From Pecten maximus (Eukaryota): a stretch of DNA of 64,000 bases. The stretch spans positions 39,618,001 to 39,682,000 of the forward strand of contig NC_047025.1 in assembly GCF_902652985.1 (NCBI RefSeq), written 5' to 3'. Below, in pieces: positions 18,256 to 63,904 of this stretch. The translations under genes were made by a program, and so were the position numbers. Under the pieces are notes generated by a model. It was not told where the DNA came from, searched no databases, and saw only the letters and a program-made list of their open reading frames with translations. Numbering within the stretch: the first letter of the stretch is position 1; every line of letters begins with the position of its first letter.

Positions 18256-19891
18256 TCGTGTATTTGGTGATAGAGTTAATTTCATTGCTATTAATATAAG
18301 TAGCACGTGTTATTTCTATGTGCGCTAAAATTATCCAAAACGATGTTAGGAGGCAATCATTTCTACTTCTTACAAGGCCGTCTCTGTTCAATTGCAATAT
18401 GAGGTTATCTTCCATGTGGGCTGATATACAATGTCCAGACCGGTCAGTCATATCAATCGTGCAAATTACTCGAGTTTAAAAACAATCAAGTTAATTGCAA
18501 AGGGAAACAATCACGAATGACTTTGACATGACAGACTAAATATTGATCAGAATTATCGTATTCAAGTCATTATTATTATGACAGACTGAAAGCGTTGACC
18601 ATAGTCTACGCTGCTGGTAGTCGGGCCGCTTTAATTATATATCGCAGTATAGTATGCCGAAAGTGATAAAACAATAAAGATATGAAATTGCTGTAGGCTC
18701 ATTTGCCATCGGGGATATCCGCGTACTCAGAGCGTAGACTGCTAGTGAAAATGATACCCGTCTACGAAGCGTTCATCCAATAACTTTCTAGTAGAACTTG
18801 TAAGTTCGGTCGTAAAGCGCACCATCTACAGCCGTAATAGATTGTAGGGCAGCAGACCACGGTAAACGGAAGTCACCGGTCGATAGGGAGGCCGACGGCT
18901 CCATGGAGTTATATCTTAGGCCAAACTCAAATAAAGTAGAGTATGGAACAGTCTGGCCTACGGGAGATGTACCTAATGGTAGGTCTCCTTTGGTGATTAT
19001 AAGACACTGTCACCGTCCTGTCTGTTGATGGATGTAACCTTTGGTGATTATAAGACACTGTCACCGTCCTGTCTGTTGATGGATGTACATCTATCCAGTA
19101 ATATGACGTGTTTCTCCTCCACATCTGGAACTGTATGAAATCATGTAATTATTGATACAGAAAAAGGTTATTAGTGCCACTGCACGCTATGCACGTCGGT
19201 GCACGTGTTTGATGAGCGCCACTCGCTCGTGTAATTACTTGCATACTTAATCACAACGTACATTTATTAACGAACGCGACTAAATGGATAAGTCAAGAAC
19301 CAATCACATGCACTCGTATATACCTAAACAACCAATCAAATTTATTGATGTATACCTAAACAACCAATCAAATTTATTGATGTATACCTAAACAACCAAT
19401 CAAATTTATTGATGTATACCTAAACAGCCAATCACATGTATAAAGCATATCTTGGTTATATAAGTTTGTGTACTGAGACGGTATTATTGTAGAAATCATT
19501 GTGCGGTTTGCATGGCTCCATCCGTTCCCAGTCTACCATGCTCCTGTTTATCAGTGTTGGCATTAGTGGTTTAATCAAATGCATGTTTGACATAGGGGAT
19601 GTACACACGTCATTTTGAATTACTGATAACATCTCCTAACAGCTTACGACATTATGGTACATGTTACTGCTCTAATGTTATTTTGATACATTTCTCTGAT
19701 GATCACGATTAATAAATCCCCTACAAAGTGTTTACCGTGAATCTCACGAAGACAATATTTTATTCAATACGATAATGGGTATTGTATTGTCCCGAAACTG
19801 TAGGGATTTTCACACCACCGGAAGTTATTAAAAAGTCACACAACGACGGGCACATTATTACTAGTATATACATGTACATGCGTTAAAGTTT

Positions 19892-23912: not shown

Positions 23913-24234
23913 TAGTGTTATGTTCGGTAGTTAGTTTAGGATTGGGTTAATGTTATGTTTGGTAGTTAGTTACGGATTGGGTCAGTGTTATCTTCGATAG
24001 ATAGTTTATGATTGGGTTAGTTTAGTTGTTAGTTTTTCAAGGCAGATATCAAACCAAAGAGGACTTCGACTCGGCAGATTACAACAGTAAAGATTTAAAA
24101 AATGTCCCAGAGTAAGATGTCCCAGAGTTAGAATGTCGCAGATTTTGAATGGATTGAAGTGAAATGGGACTTCTTCACGGCGGACCAGGGACAAACATAC
24201 ATGTAAAGGATTTACTTTGGAAAATGTTTCTGTT

Positions 24235-31464: not shown

Positions 31465-31928
31465 ATAATGGTATTTATTACATTTTTATCAGTGAAATAT
31501 CAAAAATTATTCATTCTATAAAAGTGATATTTTTCACTAGTGAAGAATATCATATTTTTCACTAGTGAAAAATATCACTTTTGCTGATTTGACCAATCAA
31601 ATTAATGATTAGAAAATACCAAAATAATTGACCAATCAGAAAGCCCGACATATATGTCAGCACCTGGACAGGGGAAACTACTTTTTTTGTTTACAAATTA
31701 TGGCTGTAGTCCTAGTTAGCATACGGGGTAGGGTTTTCGTTGATAAAAAATGTAATAAACAGAATATCTAACAGTGTCTTCAGTAAAACTAAATATATTT
31801 CACTCGTGTGGCTAATATTTTGATATTTTTCACTCGTGCTGCGCACTCGTGAAAAATATCAAAATATTAGCCCCACTCGTGAAATATATTTGGTATTACT
31901 GTAAGACACTGTTAGATATCCTCTATAT
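31465..31928. mobile_element. Non-autonomous element: IR-bounded arm plus ~165-bp hairpin
   Basis: TTTATTACATTTTTATCA (31474-31491) inverted at 31741-31759; imperfect palindrome 31761-31924 with apex GTGC-TGC-GCAC and four CACTCGTG motifs; TATA context on both sides. Confidence 0.7.
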
Positions 31929-32808
31929 ATGTTTCTATGCCAATCTCTACAAGATGTCAACAGTATAATACAGTCACGGCTTAGGACAACATGTTTTGTT
32001 GACAAGAAACCTTTGCTTATAACCAGAGACTAAGGAAACTAATTGGCGTGAAAACATATATTTCTATGTAGATAATTATACAATAATTTACTTGCGAAGG
32101 AAAACACACACAAACAAGATGTTACCGATATGAACGACAGATACACGTCCTGTAAGTAATTTGAATATATATTTGGTTATGGGAATAACTCAATGTAAAA
32201 GTATCGTCAACAGCTTACCTGATCTAACGGTCAGGTAGCCACCTGATCTAACGGTCAGGTAGCCATAACTCAGACTCTCATACAGCTAAAACGGACTGTT
32301 TAACACTTTGATACAGCGTCAATTGTCTTTTAGCCAGTTAAGGGAACATTAATTTTCTCGAAGTTTGTCTATGGGTTACGGGAACCTGCTTATATAGAAC
32401 TAAACAGCTAATCAGATACAACGATTTCCCTGTATGTGATTAGCTGTCATACGAGAAGGTTGTGATCGGTGACAGCGGTAACAAGGTACTAGAGATGACA
32501 TAGATAACGTGTGCCTTTTTGTTGTCTTGTTGGAACTGAAAAGACTAACCAGCACAAAAATATTCTCCATAATACCTTTAGAACTTTCGAATATAAAACT
32601 GTGTTTATAAGTTTGTAATAAAGTAATGGTGTTATCAGAGGAGTCATATGTGAGTTTGATATTCCATCACGTCTGAATCAATTGATATCGATTACAAGTT
32701 AACATCTTAAACCATAGCGCCAATGTTTGAATAGTATGAAAAATAAAATCAATATTTCTTCATTTTTCTTTAACTCGATAGTATGACCTGACATAATTAT
32801 TTTTGTAG

Positions 32809-41432: not shown

Positions 41433-43313
41433 ATTAGTACTGATTCCCTCTTCTCTGAAGTTATGGTCCTTGAGGGAATCCCTCTAACGTTTAGATATAC
41501 TGTCGTTATTAGTACTGATTCCCTCTTCTCTGAAGTTATGGTCCTTGAGGGAATCCCTCTAACGTTTAGATATACTGCCGTTATTAGTACTGATTCCCTC
41601 TTCTCTGAAGTTATGGTCCTTGAGGGAATCCCTCTAACGTTTAGATATAATGTCGTTATTAGTACTTATTCCCTCTTCTCTGAAGTTATGGTCCTTGAGG
41701 GAATCCCTCTAACGTTTAGATATACATTTACTGTCGTTATTAGTACTGATTCCCTCTTCTCTGAAGTTATGGTCCTTGAGGGAATCCCTCTAACGTTTAG
41801 ATATACTGCCGTTATTAGTACTGATTCCCTCTTCTCTGAAGTTATGGTCCTTGAGGGAATCCCTCTAACGTTTAGATATAATGTCGTTATTAGTACTTAT
41901 TCCCTCTTCTCTGAAGTTATGGTCCTTGAGGGAATCCCTCTAACGTTTAGATATACTGTCGTTATTAGTACTGATTCCCCCTTCTCTGAAGTTATGGTCC
42001 TTGAGGGAATCCCTCTAACGTTTAGATATACTGTCGTTATTAGTACTGATTCCCTCTTCTCTGAAGTTATGGTCCTTGAGGGAATCCCTCTAACGTTTAG
42101 ATATACTGTCGTTATTAGTACTGATTCCCTCTTCTCTGAAGTTATGGTCCTTGAGGGAATCCCTCTAACGTTTAGATATACTGCCGTTATTAGTACTGAT
42201 TCCCTCTTCTCTGAAGTAATGGTCCTTGAGGGAATCCCTCTAACGTTTAGATATACTGTCGTTATTAGTACTGATTCCCTCTTCTCTGAAGTTATGGTCC
42301 TTGAGGGAATCCCTCTAACGTTTAGATATACTGTCGTTATTAGTACTTATTCCCTCTTCTCTGAAGTTATGGTCCTTGAGGGAATCCCTCTAACGTTTAG
42401 ATATACTGTCGTTATTAGTACTGATTCCCTCTTCTCTGAAGTTATGATCCTTGAGGGAATCCCTCTAACGTTTAGATATACTGTCGTTATTAGTACTGAT
42501 TCCCTCTTCTCTGAAGTTATGATCCTTGAGGGAATCCCTCTAACGTTTAGATATACTGTCGTTATTAGTACTGATTCCCCCTTCTCTGAAGTTATGGTCC
42601 TTGAGGGAATCCCTCTAACGTTTAGATATACTGTCGTTATTAGTACTGATTCCCTCTTCTCTGAAGTTATGGTCCTTGAGGGAATCCCTCTAACGTTTAG
42701 ATATACTGTCGTTATTAGTACTGATTCCCTCTTCTCTGAAGTTATGGTCCTTGAGGGAATCCCTCTAACGTTTAGATATACTGCGTTATTAGTACTGATT
42801 CCCTCTTCTCTGAAGTTATGGTCCTTGAGGGAATCCCTCTAACGTTTAGATATACTGTCGTTATTAGTACTGATTCCCCCTTCTCTGAAGTTATGGTCCT
42901 TGAGGGAATCCCTCTAACGTTTAGATATACTGCCGTTATTAGTACTGATTCCCTCTTCTCTGAAGTTATGGTCCTTGAGGGAATCCCTCTAACGTTTAGA
43001 TATACTGTCGTTATTAGTACTGATTCCCTCTTCTCTGAAGTTATGGTCCTTGAGGGAATCCCTCTAACGTTTAGATATACTGTCGTTATTAGTACTGATT
43101 CCCTCTTCTCTGAAGTTATGTTCCTTGAGGGAATCCCTCTAACGTTTAGATATACTGTCGTTATTAGTACTGATTCCCTCTTCTCTGAAGTTATGATCCT
43201 TGAGGGAATCCCTCTAACGTTTAGATATACTGTCGTTATTAGTACTGATTCCCCCTTCTCTGAAGTTATGGTCCTTGAGGGAATCTCTCTAACGTTTAGA
43301 TATACTGTCGTTA
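41433..43313. repeat. 75-bp minisatellite, about 25 copies
   Basis: Unit GTTATTAGTACTGATTCCCTCTTCTCTGAAGTTATGGTCCTTGAGGGAATCCCTCTAACGTTTAGATATACTGTC. Confidence 0.97.
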
Positions 43314-43705
43314 TAAAACCAGACGTATATGTATGTGGAATCAGTTTGTTTTGTTGTATTTTCGTTACATTGCCTGAACCGCGTTTTTATTTACTTTCTG
43401 GTGTTATCATTCGCTAGTTATAATATACTTGGTATGGTGTTATACTACTTTCCTATGGTTTGATACCGACGGTCGCTTGTCAATAGAAAATTCGAAGTTT
43501 AAAGTGTCCTTCCAGTAAACTGAACTTTAATGATACGGATCTATAATTTGCATACTCGCCAATACAGTCAATTCACTTGGTAGGTTATGATGGAAAAATA
43601 AAACTCACAAGAATGCGTATACAGCTTAACCAGGAACACTTATAGCAGGACTGGAAAAACCGAATGGCAAAGACGACAAAATATGGTGACGGGAGAGGTC
43701 ATTTT

Positions 43706-46700
43706 TTTTTTTTTTTTTTATATTTGTTTTATTTTTCCAAGGCATATTATACATAGGTACATATAAATATTTTACTTCGGAAACATTTACATACTTACTC
43801 ACTCACTCACTCTACATTCTATCTTTTTGACATTCAAATTTATGTATATTGCATCTATTCACTCAATTGTTCAGCTTTCACACTATATATTCTTCCAAAA
43901 CCTTTCATATTTAACGTCATATGGTTTCACCCTCTCACCCTAACATACATACACACCTAACATCAATGGTATAAGATAAAAACAAACACAGATACACGTG
44001 GACAGGATACAAATCATAACATTTATATTATTTAATCTTGAACAAAACGACAAAAATCCATATAGACATATACAGACATACACAAAGAAGAGGAAAGGAA
44101 GGAGAAGGAAGAGAAGATGGATGAAAAGTGGAAGAAAGAAAGGAAGGAGAAGAAGAAAAGGAAGGGAGTACTTTGTAATATTTTAAAGTATTTTATTCAA
44201 AGAGAGTACAAAAGAAAAAAAAAGAAAAAAAATAAATAAATATCATACTTTACACAATATATACCAAAAGAGGAAAGGACTGGATGGTAGACTTGTTACT
44301 AAAAATGTAGATTAACTCAATTATATATTTACTGCAATTGTCAGACACTGGGATTCCAGCAAAAGAAGAAGGTACCACATGTATACGATTATTAATATTT
44401 AATACAAATAAATGTGTAATGTATAAGTCAATAAAACAGATTAAAAAAGTATTATTCCATAATCTGCAAAAGTTTATCCCATTTTCTCCATTCAGCCAAA
44501 CATTTGTTTTTTTCTTTTCCCCCTTTTTTAGAGCTACAAAATTTTCTGACTTTATAATGATCATAGATACAATAGAGTAAAGAGTTGATATTTAAAGATT
44601 TATGCAGACATCTGTTTCTGTATATGTATTGTTTTATAATCAAAATAATTTGATTATCTACTTTAAAGGATGGATTTTTATAATCACCATCATATTTACC
44701 AAAAAGTATTGTTTTTTTATTTAGTCTAAAGGGAATAAATAATGCATCTAATAATATATCTAGACCTTCAAGAAGATTCTGAACTTGGTCACACTCCCAA
44801 AAAATGTGAACAATTGATTCAATTTCTGAGTTACAAAAGTTACAGAATGGACTGTTTGTTAGTTTGGCTTTGAAAAGAAATGAATTAGTTGTTAAGATAT
44901 GATGTGATATTCTAAATTGCAACCAGTGTAATCGTGAGTTTTTACTTACTGTAAAAGGAAGTGTATATATACTACACCAATCATTTAAATTGAAATCAAG
45001 TACGTTAGACCATTTCTCTTTCCCTTTAGCAGTAATATCATTCTTTGAATTTAGAATATCATAAAATATCTTCGAGCCTTTATTAATATTAAGAAATATT
45101 GCAATATTGCTAGGTAAAACTGGATATACAAAGTTATACACATGTAATTAGTGGAATCAAATTCAAAGTGTTGTAAACATTTTTTTATTGCAGATATTAC
45201 TCCATTATATTTCAAAAAGTTAGTGTTAATGCTATACTTTTTAATAAATTCATTAAAAGAGAAAAAAGTGTTGTTGTTTACATCTTTGAAGAAGTCACCA
45301 ATGACATAAATACCCTTTTCATACCACTTAGAGTAGAAAATTGTTCCACCACCTATTGTAACATTTTTGTTATGCCAGACAGGTGTATGCAAGAGTGCTT
45401 TCCCTTTGACTATTTTCATATTAGTAGAGTTATCTAATCTTGACCAAGCCCTAAGTACATCTTTCCAAAAAGAATTGCTAATATTTTGTTGGCATAGATC
45501 TATATAGTTCCCTCCAATATTCATTAGTTTATCTAGGTCTAAATATTTTTCTAGTAGTGTTTTCCATTTTCCTGAAGATTGAAACAGTCGCTTAACCCAG
45601 CCAATTTTTAATGAATCAACAAAATTTTGAGTATTGAGCATTTTTAGTCCCCCATGAGAGTGATCTTGTACAATAATATCTCTTTTAATTTTATCCACTT
45701 TACTATGCCACAAAAATTCAAATAAAATAGAGTTTATTTTTTTAATTATCTTGTCACCTGGGTTTGGTAGAGCAATAAATAAATGATTAAATTGGGAGAT
45801 CATTAATGATTTTATTAAATGAATTTTACCTATTGGAGTTAAGTTACGTCTGCTCCAAGCAGTAATAATATTTTTTAATTTTACTATTTTCTTATCAAAG
45901 TTCATTTTAATCATTTCATGTAGATCAACGCTGAAATCTATTCCTAATAGAGTGAATTTTTCTTTTCCCCATTTCAAGTTTAGTTCAGGTAGAAATTTCT
46001 CTTGACTATACAATGTACTTTTTACTGCCAATCCATACAATTTCTGTCTTATCAATATTAATTTTTAATCCTGAAATTGATGCAAAAATATTTAATTCAT
46101 TCATTGTTTCTTTAAGAGATTCCTCAGATCCATCAAGAGTTAAGTATGTGTCATCTGCATATTGTGAAAGTAAAATATTTGTATTATCAACCTCTACCCC
46201 CTTAATATGTTTGTTATTTCTAAGCCTAATAGCAAGAATTTCGGCACAAAGAATGAAGATATATGGTGCGATCGGATCCCCTTGTCTACATCCCCTTTTT
46301 ATTCTGAAAAATGATGAAAGATTCCCTCCCTGATTAATAGAAGCTCCTACATTACAGTTAAACAATTGTACCCAATTTTTTATATAATTTCCAAAACCAA
46401 AAAAATCTAACACTTTTGCTATGAAGTTAAAAGAAACAGAATCGAACGCCTTTTCAAAATCTATCATTAAAACCATCCCCAGAATATCATTTTCTTCAGT
46501 ATAATTCATAATGTCATATAAAAGTCTAGTGTTTTCCCCAATGTATCGACCTGCTATAAAACCTGATTGATCTTTGTTAACAATTATGTCCAAAACTGAT
46601 TTTATTCTATTTGCAATAACCCCTGATCCAATTTTATATATAATATTTAATAAAGTTATAGGTCTCCAGTTTTTGATGTATTGACGTGGTTTATCTTTTT

Positions 46701-47021
46701 TTGGAATACAAATTATTACACCGTGGCGTTGTGTTACAGATAATTCTCCTTTCATGTACCCATAATTTAGTGAACGGACAATGAAATACCCAAGTTGTTC
46801 CCAAAAATATTTAAAAAATTCAACGGTATAGCCATCAGAGCCAGGACTTTTATTATTTTTCATATTGCTTAATGTCTTATATGCTTCCTCAATAGTTATA
46901 AGTCCTTCTAATTTATCAGATTCATACATATTTAGTTTTGGGATGTTTTCGAAATCAATAAGAGAATCAAGAGTTATATCAGTTAAAGTATCATCTGAAT
47001 TATATAAATTTTCATAAAAGA
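43706..47021 (-). mobile_element. 5'-truncated L1/Tx1-type non-LTR retrotransposon (ORF2 RT to C-terminal CCHC, 3' UTR, poly(A))
   Basis: ORFs 47052-46006, 46055-45051 and 45141-44452 carry KSPGSDG, NWRPITLLN, DFEKAFDSV, GCRQGDP, QYADD and CNFCNSEIESIVHIFWEC; poly-T 43702-43719 with TTTATT next to it; TSD GAGAGGTCATTTT at 43693-43705 and 47022-47034; endonuclease domain absent. Confidence 0.95.
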
Positions 47022-47387
47022 GAGAGGTCATTTTAATCACCGAAACAACCACGGAACAACATCACCTATGGGATCACCCTCGACACTCAAGGGTGTCCCC
47101 TTCGCTATCTGCACTTCTGGAAAATGTCATGGGAAAACCATCGAAGGCACACGACTAGCTATGTGATTGGTGTCGGGAATAAACCTTGCCAATCGCTAAG
47201 CTGTTGCATATCATTTGAAGAAGTGAAATATTTAACAGTTCCGTAGTTCGTATACTATGAACAATACATCACCTATGTACGTGAAATCTACACGGGGACC
47301 CACATATTGTAGAATTATAAATGGCATCGGCGACATCCGCCATCTACATATTAAGTAGTCAATTTAAAATATTATTAACTTCAGCAT

Positions 47388-48957: not shown

Positions 48958-49890
48958 ACAGACAGGTAGACAGGGGAGAGTACAGACAGGTAGACAGAGG
49001 AGAGTATAGACAGGTAGACAGAGGAGAGTACAGACAGGTAGACAGAGGAGAGTACAGACAGGTAGACAGGGGAGAGTACAGACAGGTAGACAGGGGAGAG
49101 TACAGACAGGTAGACAGAGGAGAGTACAGACAGGTAGACAGAGGAGAGTACAGACAGGTAGACAGAGGAGAGTACAGACAGGTAGACAGAGGAGAGTACA
49201 GACAGGTAGACAGAGGAGAGTACAGACAGGTAGACTGAGGAGAGTACAGACAGGTAGACAGAGGAGAGTACGGACAGGTAGACAGAGGAGAGTACAGACA
49301 GGTAGACAGAGGAGAGTACAGACAGGTAGACAGAGGAGAGACAGGTAGACAGAGGAGAGTACAGACAGGTAGACAGGGGAGAGTACAGACAGGTAGACAG
49401 AGGAGAGTACAGACAGGTAGACAGAGGAGAGTACAGACAGGTAGACAGAGGAGAGTACAGACAGGTAGACAGAGTACAGACAGGTAGACAGAGGAGAGTA
49501 CAGACAGGTAGACAGAGGAGAGTACAGACAGGTAGACAGAGGAGAGTACAGACAGGTAGACAGAGTACAGACAGGTAGACAGAGGAGAGTACAGACAGGT
49601 AGACAGGGGAGAGTACAGACAGGTAGACAGAGGAGAGTACAGACAGGTAGACAGGGGAGAGTACAGACAGGTAGACAGGGGAGAGTACAGACAGGTAGAC
49701 AGAGGAGAGTACAGACAGGTAGACAGAGGAGAGTACAGACAGGTAGACAGAGGAGAGTACAGACAGGTAGACAGAGTACAGACAGGTAGACAGAGGAGAG
49801 TACAGACAGGTAGACAGGGGAGAGTACAGACAGGTAGACAGGGGAGAGTACAGACAGGTAGACAGAGGAGAGTACAGACAGGTAGACAGA
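48958..49890. repeat. 24-bp purine-rich minisatellite
   Basis: Unit ACAGACAGGTAGACAGAGGAGAGT. Confidence 0.96.
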
Positions 49891-49966
49891 GGTTACCAGT
49901 AATTGTCTTGTAGAAAACAGGACTAAAGGTTACGGCTACCCTGGGTATGAGGACAAAGTAATTGTT

Positions 49967-56029: not shown

Positions 56030-57265
56030 TCACTGAAGGAGTCCTAGAAGGATGTAACAGCTGTATGATGTCTCTAACATTACTGAGGAGTCAAAGGATG
56101 AAACAGCTGTATGATGTCTCTAACATCACTGACGTGTCCTAGAAGGACAACACAGCTGTATGATGTCCCTAGTATCACTGACGAATCCTAGAATGACACT
56201 TAAGCATTGAACGGCTTTCAGTTGGCATTCATAGTCAATATGAATGCCAACTGGACAGAGGCAAATTCCATGAAGCGCGCTAGCGCTTCATGTTGAATTT
56301 GCCTCTGTCCAGTTGGCATTCATATTGACTATGAATGCCAACTGAAAGCCGTTCAATTCTTATATTTACCATCTGCGATTTTTTATTTGTCATGCGATTT
56401 TTGTTTTGAAATTTTCAAATTCAAATTTCCCGCGCTTACCAGTAGCAGAGATCACTTCCTGTTGGCAGTTCATAGGCTGGTGAACACGCAACTGAATTGG
56501 TAGGGTTATATAGTGGCAGTGCCATACAATGGTAAATATAGCTGTATGATGTCCCTATTATCACTGACGAGTCCTAGGACGTAACAACTGTATGATGTCT
56601 CTAACATTACTGAGGAGTCATAGGATGTAACAGCTGTATGATGTCTCTAACATCACTGACGTGTCCTAGAAGGACAACACAGCTGTATGATGTCTCTAAT
56701 ATCACTGACGAGACCTATCAGGACAATACAGCTGTATGGTGTCCCTATCATCACTGACGAGTCTTAGAAGGACGATACAGCTGTATGATGTCTCTAACAT
56801 CACTGACTGGTCTTAGGACGTAACAGCTGTATGATGTCCCTAACATCAGTGACGATTCCTAGGACGTAACAGTTGAATGATGTCTCTAACATCACTGACG
56901 AGTCCTAGGACGTAACAGCTGTATGATGTCTCTAACATCTCGTACGAGTCCTAGAAGGACGATACAGTTGTATGGTGTCTCTAACATTACTGACGAGTCT
57001 TTGGACGTAACAGCTGTTTGGTGTCTCTAACATCAGTGACGAGTCCTAGAAGGACGTAACAGCTGTATGATATCTCTAACATCTCGTACGAGTCCTAGAA
57101 GGACGTAATAGTTGTATGGTGTCTCTAACATTACTGACGAGTCCTTGGACGTAATAGCTGTATGATGTCTCTAACATCAGCGGCGAGTCCTAGAAGGACG
57201 TAACAGCTGTATGATGTCTCTAACATCAGTGTCGAGTCCTTTGACGTAACAGCTGTATGATGTCC
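56030..57265. repeat. Degenerate ~45-50-bp minisatellite interrupted by a hairpin element
   Basis: ACAGCTGTATGATGTCTCTAACATCACTGACGAGTCCTAG(AA)GGACGTA units on both sides of 56201-56540. Confidence 0.9.
56201..56540. mobile_element. Non-autonomous element: ~150-bp nested hairpin plus IR-bounded arm, inserted in a minisatellite
   Basis: Palindrome 56201-56352 (apex GAAGCGC-GCTA-GCGCTTC); perfect 12-bp IR TATATTTACCAT (56351-56362) / ATGGTAAATATA (56529-56540); interrupts one unit of the 56030-57265 array. Confidence 0.8.
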
Positions 57266-57445: not shown

Positions 57446-57570
57446 GGCGTCTGTTTCTGGTTAGTATAAATAGAAAAAAAATTACCACCTTCTCCTACTT
57501 TACCGACAGGTGTTACAGTAGGAGTAGGGGCCAAGATTTTTTCTATTTATACTAACCGGAAACAGACGCC
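57446..57570. mobile_element. Small foldback/MITE-like element
   Basis: ~35-bp arms GGCGTCTGTTTCTGGTTAGTATAAATAGAAAAAA / TTTTTCTATTTATACTAACCGGAAACAGACGCC (1 mismatch) plus inner CTCCTACT/AGTAGGAG stem. Confidence 0.6.
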
Positions 57571-62088: not shown

Positions 62089-62534
62089 CTGACGTTAGGT
62101 AAAAAAAAAAAAAAAAAAATGGAAAGAAAGAAAAGAAAAAAGACATTGCTATTGCTGAAAGCCTAATATAAAGCCCTATCTGGATCTGTCATCAGAAGTA
62201 AAGAAACATAACATCATCCGAGAAATATGTATTTTTAACATACATGTATAGTTGACTCTACTGTTCGACAAAAATAACTTTTTAGACTTGTTTCATAAAA
62301 TCTCAGTTGAAATGAAAACCCATTTTTGAATCCTACATGAATTATATGTCCCGTGAAGTAATGTACAGATATCTAGAAACCCGACATCATACAGTATCAT
62401 TACAGATATTTATAATCATCAACTGGCCTAGCCAGACATGTGTTAGCACTGATAGGTAGTAACATGACAGCTATATAACTAATTGTACTATCTTCCTCAA
62501 CATAACGTCTGTAGTACTTCCTTTGGTCAATAAT

Positions 62535-63256: not shown

Positions 63257-63904
63257 CTGGTATCAAATAAAAAATATTCCGATTTCAATATAAAATTTAC
63301 ATGTATTTCCCACATCGATCCATACACTTCCTAGTTAAGTGTTTGAAAAAGAGTAAAATATTGGCCCAGGGTTAACATACCGGTAACAATGAATTTGGCG
63401 TTGGTAAAATCAATCAAACATATTTAAAATTACAAAAGACATATCGTAAATTTGGACGATCAGTCCCTTTCAATTTTTGATGATTCAAAATAAATTGTTG
63501 GATAAAATGAATAAAGGCTACTCAAACTAAGGCAAACATTTTAGGACACAAAGTTACAAACTTGAAAATGTTTCCAACGTTGAGTATAATTAGATTTGTT
63601 TTTACGCAGATTAACATCCTCGCACCATCCGGGCTCATTTGAGGACGAATGTTAGGGGCATAAAAAGCAGAAGAAAAGAACAGACAGGACAGAGGAAGAG
63701 ATAAAGATCTCTAATGTTTTGTATCTTCAATGTCCTGTAATCAGAACATAAGAAAGGAAAGCCTCAGGCCTGCTATGGCCGTATTTGTGGTCCTTCCTAC
63801 GATCAACATGCTATTACTATGTCCTCCAATGTCCCAAACACAGAAAATATCAGACACATATCCCAATTCAGAACACAATTAATCACATCCTACGACATGT
63901 AGAA

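Follow-up and report, generated by a model that had tools for sequence, protein, structure and literature searches.

The window, a stretch of 64,000 nucleotides of Pecten maximus DNA, contains a LINE copy whose ORF2 is broken twice, and the question that it raises is what caused these two breaks. The copy (43702..47021, minus strand) is 5'-truncated and L1-like, retaining the 3' part of ORF2, the 3' UTR and a poly(A) tail. It is flanked by a target-site duplication, GAGAGGTCA on the 3' side (43693..43701, plus strand; at most 13 bp if the T's that follow are counted) and its partner on the 5' side (47022..47030, plus strand). The ORF2 remnant (44452..47021, minus strand) comprises the RT domain followed by a C-terminal zinc-binding region and is split over three frames, giving ORF pieces at 46006-47061, 45051-46064 and 44452-45147. 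An intact sister copy (L178) has an APE-RT ORF of 1279 aa, the best PDB match of which is human L1 ORF2p (E 2e-98). Judged from its sequence, the host element is an L1-like LINE, as seen in the APE and RT of ORF2, the poly(A), the target-site duplication and the 5' truncation, with the clade taken from the best match. Over 3304 aligned bases, 10 substitutions are private to the window copy, and one contig of run X2 joins both flanks without the LINE; an empty allele therefore exists and the copy is young, as the earlier note had supposed.

The polarity of the breaks can be read from 27 sister copies in the genome (G000), which share 97-99% identity and together with the window copy form an alignment of 28. 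The first break, TA-CA-T-TG-TA (46009..46017, minus strand; TACAATGTA on the plus strand), is a 7-nt gain at a TA that is missing from 24 of the 24 sisters covering the site; it shifts the frame and ends ORF2 past the RT domain. The second, TA-CA-TG-TG-TA (45137..45146, minus strand; TACACATGTA on the plus strand), is an 8-nt gain at a TA that is missing from all 27 covering sisters and makes the second frameshift. These are the sole indels of the window copy within the ORF, and the words and ORF pieces confirm the two breaks at the positions where the earlier note had placed them. Its claim that removal of 7 and 8 nt restores the frame holds equally, in that the covering sisters lack the inserts and the three that were checked cross both places without leaving the frame, with ORFs of 881, 1143 and 1279 aa. 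The closest sub-lineage, of 7 and 9 copies, has exactly the same letters as the window on either side of the empty sites, and the possibility that the family consensus already contained the inserted bases is dismissed by the sisters. We conclude that both breaks are genuine and arose by recent insertion at a TA. One of the 27 sisters at the second site (L015, G000:C9:17911357-17916835) has instead lost 7 nt between ACT repeats at this very TA, which may mean that a favoured target was broken a second time.

Short-read contigs bear on whether both inserts could be assembly errors, a reading that we hold to be very improbable. In the collapsed contigs of the family the second insert is missing in four runs and the first in X1 and X5, the runs with a listed contig, and no contig bearing either insert is among those listed from the four runs; these contigs, however, collapse a family of ~30 copies and drop rare variants. 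Inserts of the same form occur in at least four other copies on other contigs. Moreover, five of five motif words in a unique stretch of 2.9 kb recur unchanged in short-read contigs, part of which come from other samples, so that the class is no assembly artefact. The earlier note had also proposed a search for indel polymorphism at such motifs; none of these five words is among the 12 indels listed for the four runs, 3 further rows lying beyond that listing.

Inserts of this kind are not confined to the window. An all-against-all comparison of 354 kb having at least three other copies, from which same-place repeat loci and a haplotig were removed first, yielded 1907 private substitutions and 34 private insertions of at least 3 nt. 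The form TA-CA-x-TG-TA makes up six of these 34, and six of the 15 that are at least 6 nt long, the middles being none, A, CA, AA, ATAA and A9. In simulation a random or locally copied insertion fits the form with a chance of 2-3e-4 each, and with the window's two left out the probability of at least 4 in 13 is 8e-12. An older repeat adds one further case (L289, filler AA) and, less securely, another in a more diverged copy (L281, filler A), and one TA-CTG-TA gain was also aligned. No CA...TG scar was found in four other families (0 per 241, 322, 82 and 128 private substitutions), nor between haplotig and chromosome, for which only 16.9 kb with 122 substitutions could be aligned, too short a stretch to carry weight.

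These alignments also weigh upon ordinary slippage or local templated insertion, with the motif excess described below having some other cause such as a transcription-factor site. Ten of the 34 private insertions are indeed plain tandem duplications, and TACATGTA is cited as an Irx site (PMC3520976). The local-copy null nevertheless gives 3e-4 per insertion, the CA...TG letters are missing from the flanks of the empty sites, and selection for binding cannot account for gains in a dead LINE ORF. This explanation is scarcely credible, and for the aligned gains slippage or local templating is already refuted.

A second scar-like class consists of TA-CC-x-GG-TA and TA-CCG-TA gains (L281, L236, L309, L286 and L166). 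In the random sample described below, both TAGGCCTA (46 against 10) and TACTAGTA (38 against 18) are in excess, which, together with the TA-CC class, suggests that several end types are joined in the same way.

The hint of a genome-wide signature in the earlier note is borne out by this recurrence and by word counts; against a Markov background the TACA-x-TGTA class exceeds expectation genome-wide, which removes the objection that the motif might not be enriched. In the random sample, 462 kb of repeat-masked DNA from which the Markov models were derived, TACA-N0/N1/N2-TGTA occur 81, 52 and 54 times against 26 expected. Among TA-XY pairs a gap-0 excess of this size is otherwise seen only for TATA and TAGG, and the word of the first insert, TACAATGTA, is the most enriched TA-N5-TA word (37 against 14). 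Genome-wide, where the counts include tandem arrays, TACATGTA occurs 207,406 times, 3.2-4.3 times the Markov expectation, and the word of the second insert, with CA as filler, 20,602 times (2.5-2.8 times). The AC filler is found 10,180 times (1.8-2.1 times) and the decay control 7,170 times (1.0-1.6 times). The form TACA-A6-TGTA is present 414 times against 214 expected (1.7-1.9 times genome-wide), whereas three C/G-swapped controls of it total 308 against 313 and are thus flat. Shorter forms differ, TACATA showing no enrichment (641 against 670 expected) and TACAGTA an excess (273 against 172), and fillers of G and GT type are modestly enriched (TACACTGTA, 24 against 13; TACAACTGTA, ~2-fold). 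For TACATGTA, controls with a reversed pattern partly coincide with the motif, and are never the sole basis of a statement here.

Within the window, the four TACATGTA words previously listed are all present, at 19869..19876, 24198..24205, 62241..62248 and 63298..63305 (no strand assigned), and are candidate scars. A further word had been listed near 44373; this word is not among the indels of the window copy, and is therefore common to the LINE family and no separate event. The window is not enriched, with 12 TACA-N0-2-TGTA words in 39.1 kb of unmasked DNA against 15.9 expected at the rate of the genome sample, and a regional hotspot is thereby ruled out as the cause. About 39% of the window (1-64000) consists of tandem arrays with periods of 2 to ~200 bp; a 75-bp array at 41433-43314 and a 24-bp array at 48958-49892 yield long spurious ORFs. 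Short multicopy or palindromic, MITE-like elements lie at 56200-56539, 31578-31938 and 57446-57570.

Two methods give an estimate of the rate at which such inserts arise. Directly, six per 1907 private substitutions correspond to 1 per 318, a figure that becomes 1 per 474 if the two inserts of the window are left out, and the steady-state excess of words implies ~1 scar per 476 substitutions; we estimate ~1 scar per 300-500 substitutions. The excess amounts to ~233 words per Mb, or ~1.6e5 sites by extrapolation.

The probability that one copy carries two scars is ~0.005-0.011 per family if the average rate applies, and rises to 0.12 at the family's own rate calculated without the window copy. 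The LINE family does stand out from the others pooled, with 5 scars per 283 private substitutions against 2 per 1350 (Fisher p 0.0025; p 0.037 without the window copy). Pairs of words in random DNA show no clustering at 15-100 or 101-1000 bp, and local hopping as the source of the double hit was set aside on this ground. There is a marginal excess of pairs at 1-3 kb (p 0.036), 60 windows show no overdispersion (p 0.14), and only adjacent chains are in clear excess (6 against 0.85). The double hit may be a striking case that was singled out for being so, may reflect a LINE family that is a good target or was hit recently, or may have come about by a short hop.

Inverted ends that do not vary, enclosed by a duplication of TA, point to elements of the IS630-Tc1-mariner group. 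Families of Tc1/mariner type with CA...TG ends, for which the earlier note had advised a search, are resident: intact DD34E transposases are found with TA|CAG...CTG|TA ends and near-identical copies, one intact ORF of 347 aa having copies that are 99.9-100% identical, and a non-autonomous multicopy TA|CAGTG element is resident as well. The CA...TG of the scars corresponds to the first two nucleotides of the TA|CAGAG, TA|CAGTC and TA|CAGTG families, among which two nucleotides cannot single out one. The scar flanks share the target preference of the resident elements (A at -3, T at +3), A at -3 having a frequency of 0.51 against a background of 0.35, and occurring at 9 of 16 half-sites of the aligned scars, compared with 0.62-0.77 for the elements. 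C at -1 has a frequency of 0.64 in the CAGAG Tc1 family and 0.13 at scars, where it is not enriched; this family is thus disfavoured and is probably not the main donor. The -1 base of the scars fits the CAGTG-type element better. CATG|TA is present at 4 of 48 half-sites of the CAGTG element, against a background of 0.7%, and TACATGTACATGTA chains are abundant, from which it follows that scars may be reused as targets.

Seven large insertions inside LINE copies were compared with these ends; none has CA...TG ends, and two are TA-flanked with CT...AG ends (TA|CT...AG|TA). Among the sister copies, the contigs and the few alleles looked at, no scar had a counterpart that still contained an element. 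Other insertions in LINE copies are DNA-transposon-like, starting with TTAG(G/C)TCACCTG and measuring 1.3 and ~2 kb (L016:~210-1500, L171/L167), or resemble an LTR element at the junctions viewed, as in a 4.3-kb insertion with TG...CA ends and a short duplication (L206/L200, G000:C10:24691-29043). A very abundant and very young Tc1 family (L121-L134), with a 355-aa frame, copies 99.7-99.9% identical and ends TATA|CTGAAAC or TA|TACTGAAAC, is probably active.

Since no donor has been caught at any scar, a TA-targeted micro-insertion process might write CA...TG between duplicated TAs with no resident transposon, for example through abortive integration of short end fragments. The preponderance of scars over recognisable TA|CAG elements, ~30:1 (~108 excess words per 462 kb, compared with no more than 3 TIR pairs per 600 kb), would also accord with it. 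If every cut-and-paste jump leaves one scar, however, scars should outnumber elements; the flank bias of the scars agrees with that of the resident elements; and the CT-ended elements inserted in LINE copies are matched by the parallel excess of TACTAGTA. An element-free origin therefore seems to us quite unlikely.

We consider it probable that the breaks are scars of CA-ended transposons of Tc1/mariner/pogo type that had inserted into the LINE copy and later left it; the middle letters of the scars likely derive from end-joining repair. Cut-and-paste excision, as proposed in the earlier note, gains support from the private inserts and from enrichment of the class; three points qualify it, in that the shape is not the textbook one, no donor was caught at any scar, and the double hit is unaccounted for. 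Insertion of the element would duplicate the TA, and its excision would leave a 2-nt 3' overhang, CA, on either flank. Tc1/mariner elements are described as being cut a few nucleotides inside their ends and leaving 3' overhangs (PMC6943129). Germline end joining would then link the overhangs tip to tip, without annealing, to give TACATGTA; because both overhangs are kept, tip-to-tip joining of non-complementary ends is needed. In a sizeable minority of events a polymerase resembling Pol mu or TdT would add filler first, either by stuttering as it copies the overhang opposite (T, TT, T-runs or TG) or by adding A's without a template, the two giving the same duplex where the filler is an A/T run.

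The fillers of the two inserts in the window are T in the first and TG in the second. The surplus of CA filler relative to AC filler tends to favour stuttering copy, but the AC filler is itself ~2-fold enriched and one filler reads TTAT, so that pure stuttering does not explain all fillers and untemplated addition or deeper cuts would contribute. A Pol mu/TdT-like polymerase is the likely supplier, as suggested by an exon of 34 aa (G000:C12:5275110-5275211) whose PDB hits, 22 in number, all belong to Pol mu or TdT, Pol lambda and Pol beta being separate loci. Pol mu is reported to join non-complementary ends with slippage and untemplated additions (PMC3526283, PMC9249759). A Pol X thumb exon is also found twice, 4 kb apart (G000:C1:5453390-5453512 and C1:5457408-5457518), the first of which matched Pol beta; the pair may represent an exon duplication.

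The middle letters could alternatively be the deeper ends of the elements themselves (CAA, CACA or CATG), exposed by cuts 3-4 nt inside, with no addition by a polymerase. Tc1/mariner footprints are described as 2-4 terminal nucleotides (PMC6943129), a CATG-ended element would yield TACATGTA by sticky ligation and TACATGTGTA by a 2-nt overlap, and the modest enrichment of G- and GT-type fillers fits CAG or CAGT ends. The A9 filler, and the A6 filler at 1.9-fold with flat controls, argue against deeper cuts, as does the observation that the CA-ended families with a transposase or many copies all begin CAG. A TIR scan of 1.1 Mb, which required 14 of 16 matches and would miss old or rare families, gave no convincing element with CAA, CACA or CATG ends. 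Excision without polymerase addition is unlikely on this evidence.

Excision followed by filler addition invites a wider proposal, which we put forward tentatively and with some doubt: that germline excision breaks are joined with the help of a filler-writing Pol mu/TdT-like polymerase, in a manner akin to N-addition in antibody genes, and that ~100,000 inherited TA-CA-(A)n-TG-TA scars form the largest non-slippage class of insertions of at least 6 nt. If so, the genome would amount to a fossil record of cut-and-paste jumping and of Pol X activity in invertebrates, in which fresh scars serve as new targets.

The single locus is ordinary, and its importance rests with the class of scars. If the excision reading is right, the DNA-transposon activity of this lineage is recorded mostly as scars of 6-15 nt that repeat annotation ignores, and these are a leading source of frameshifting insertions, here disabling a fresh LINE copy. 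Scar density would then give a ratio of jumps to substitutions of ~1:300-500, and over-represented TACATGTA words, which motif studies may read as binding sites, would have a non-selective account. The spectrum of fillers would make the choice of germline repair pathway and the function of invertebrate Pol mu/TdT testable from sequence alone.

Titles and abstracts, which give partial coverage and do not establish absence from print, revealed no paper describing inherited TACA-x-TGTA scars across an animal genome. A close parallel is with the Tc1 footprints of C. elegans, which are described as sharing the TA duplication, CA...TG ends, 2-nt remnants and end-joining repair (PMC12632400, PMC13148408). 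The textbook Tc1 footprint is given as +4, TACATA/TATGTA (PMC12632400), and is reported to account for 78% of somatic footprints, germline breaks being repaired mostly by homologous recombination; taCATGta is named as a rare Tc1 footprint (PMC3520976). The scallop scars differ from the Tc1 footprints so described in that TACATA is unenriched, neither overhang is lost, filler often lies between the two, and the scars, which are numerous, are inherited. Sleeping Beauty and ZB likewise leave TA-flanked remnants of the element ends, with a footprint shape that is said to depend on host cell type (PMC6943129, PMC7913693). The canonical Sleeping Beauty scar is described, however, as 3 nt of one end (TACAGTA), and these accounts, as far as they are available to us, mention no A-run or TG filler.

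As to the repair step, Pol mu and TdT are described as bridging incompatible 3' ends, slipping and adding nucleotides without a template, which would give such fillers (PMC3526283, PMC9249759), although these activities are reported for vertebrate enzymes in vitro or in somatic cells and the counterpart here is a single match to a 34-aa exon. The host copy shares with L1-clade non-LTR retrotransposons the APE endonuclease, RT, C-terminal zinc-binding region, poly(A), target-site duplication and 5' truncation, and is ordinary except for its two scars. With a duplicated TA, letters equal to the termini of resident elements and the same flank preference, the scars agree with the footprints of IS630-Tc1-mariner elements. 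Their shape departs from the canonical 2-4 nt of one end, in that both ends are kept and filler is added, and they are accordingly classed as a variant of that footprint. The kind itself is known; what this analysis adds is the proof from sister copies, the A-run series and the estimate of rate.
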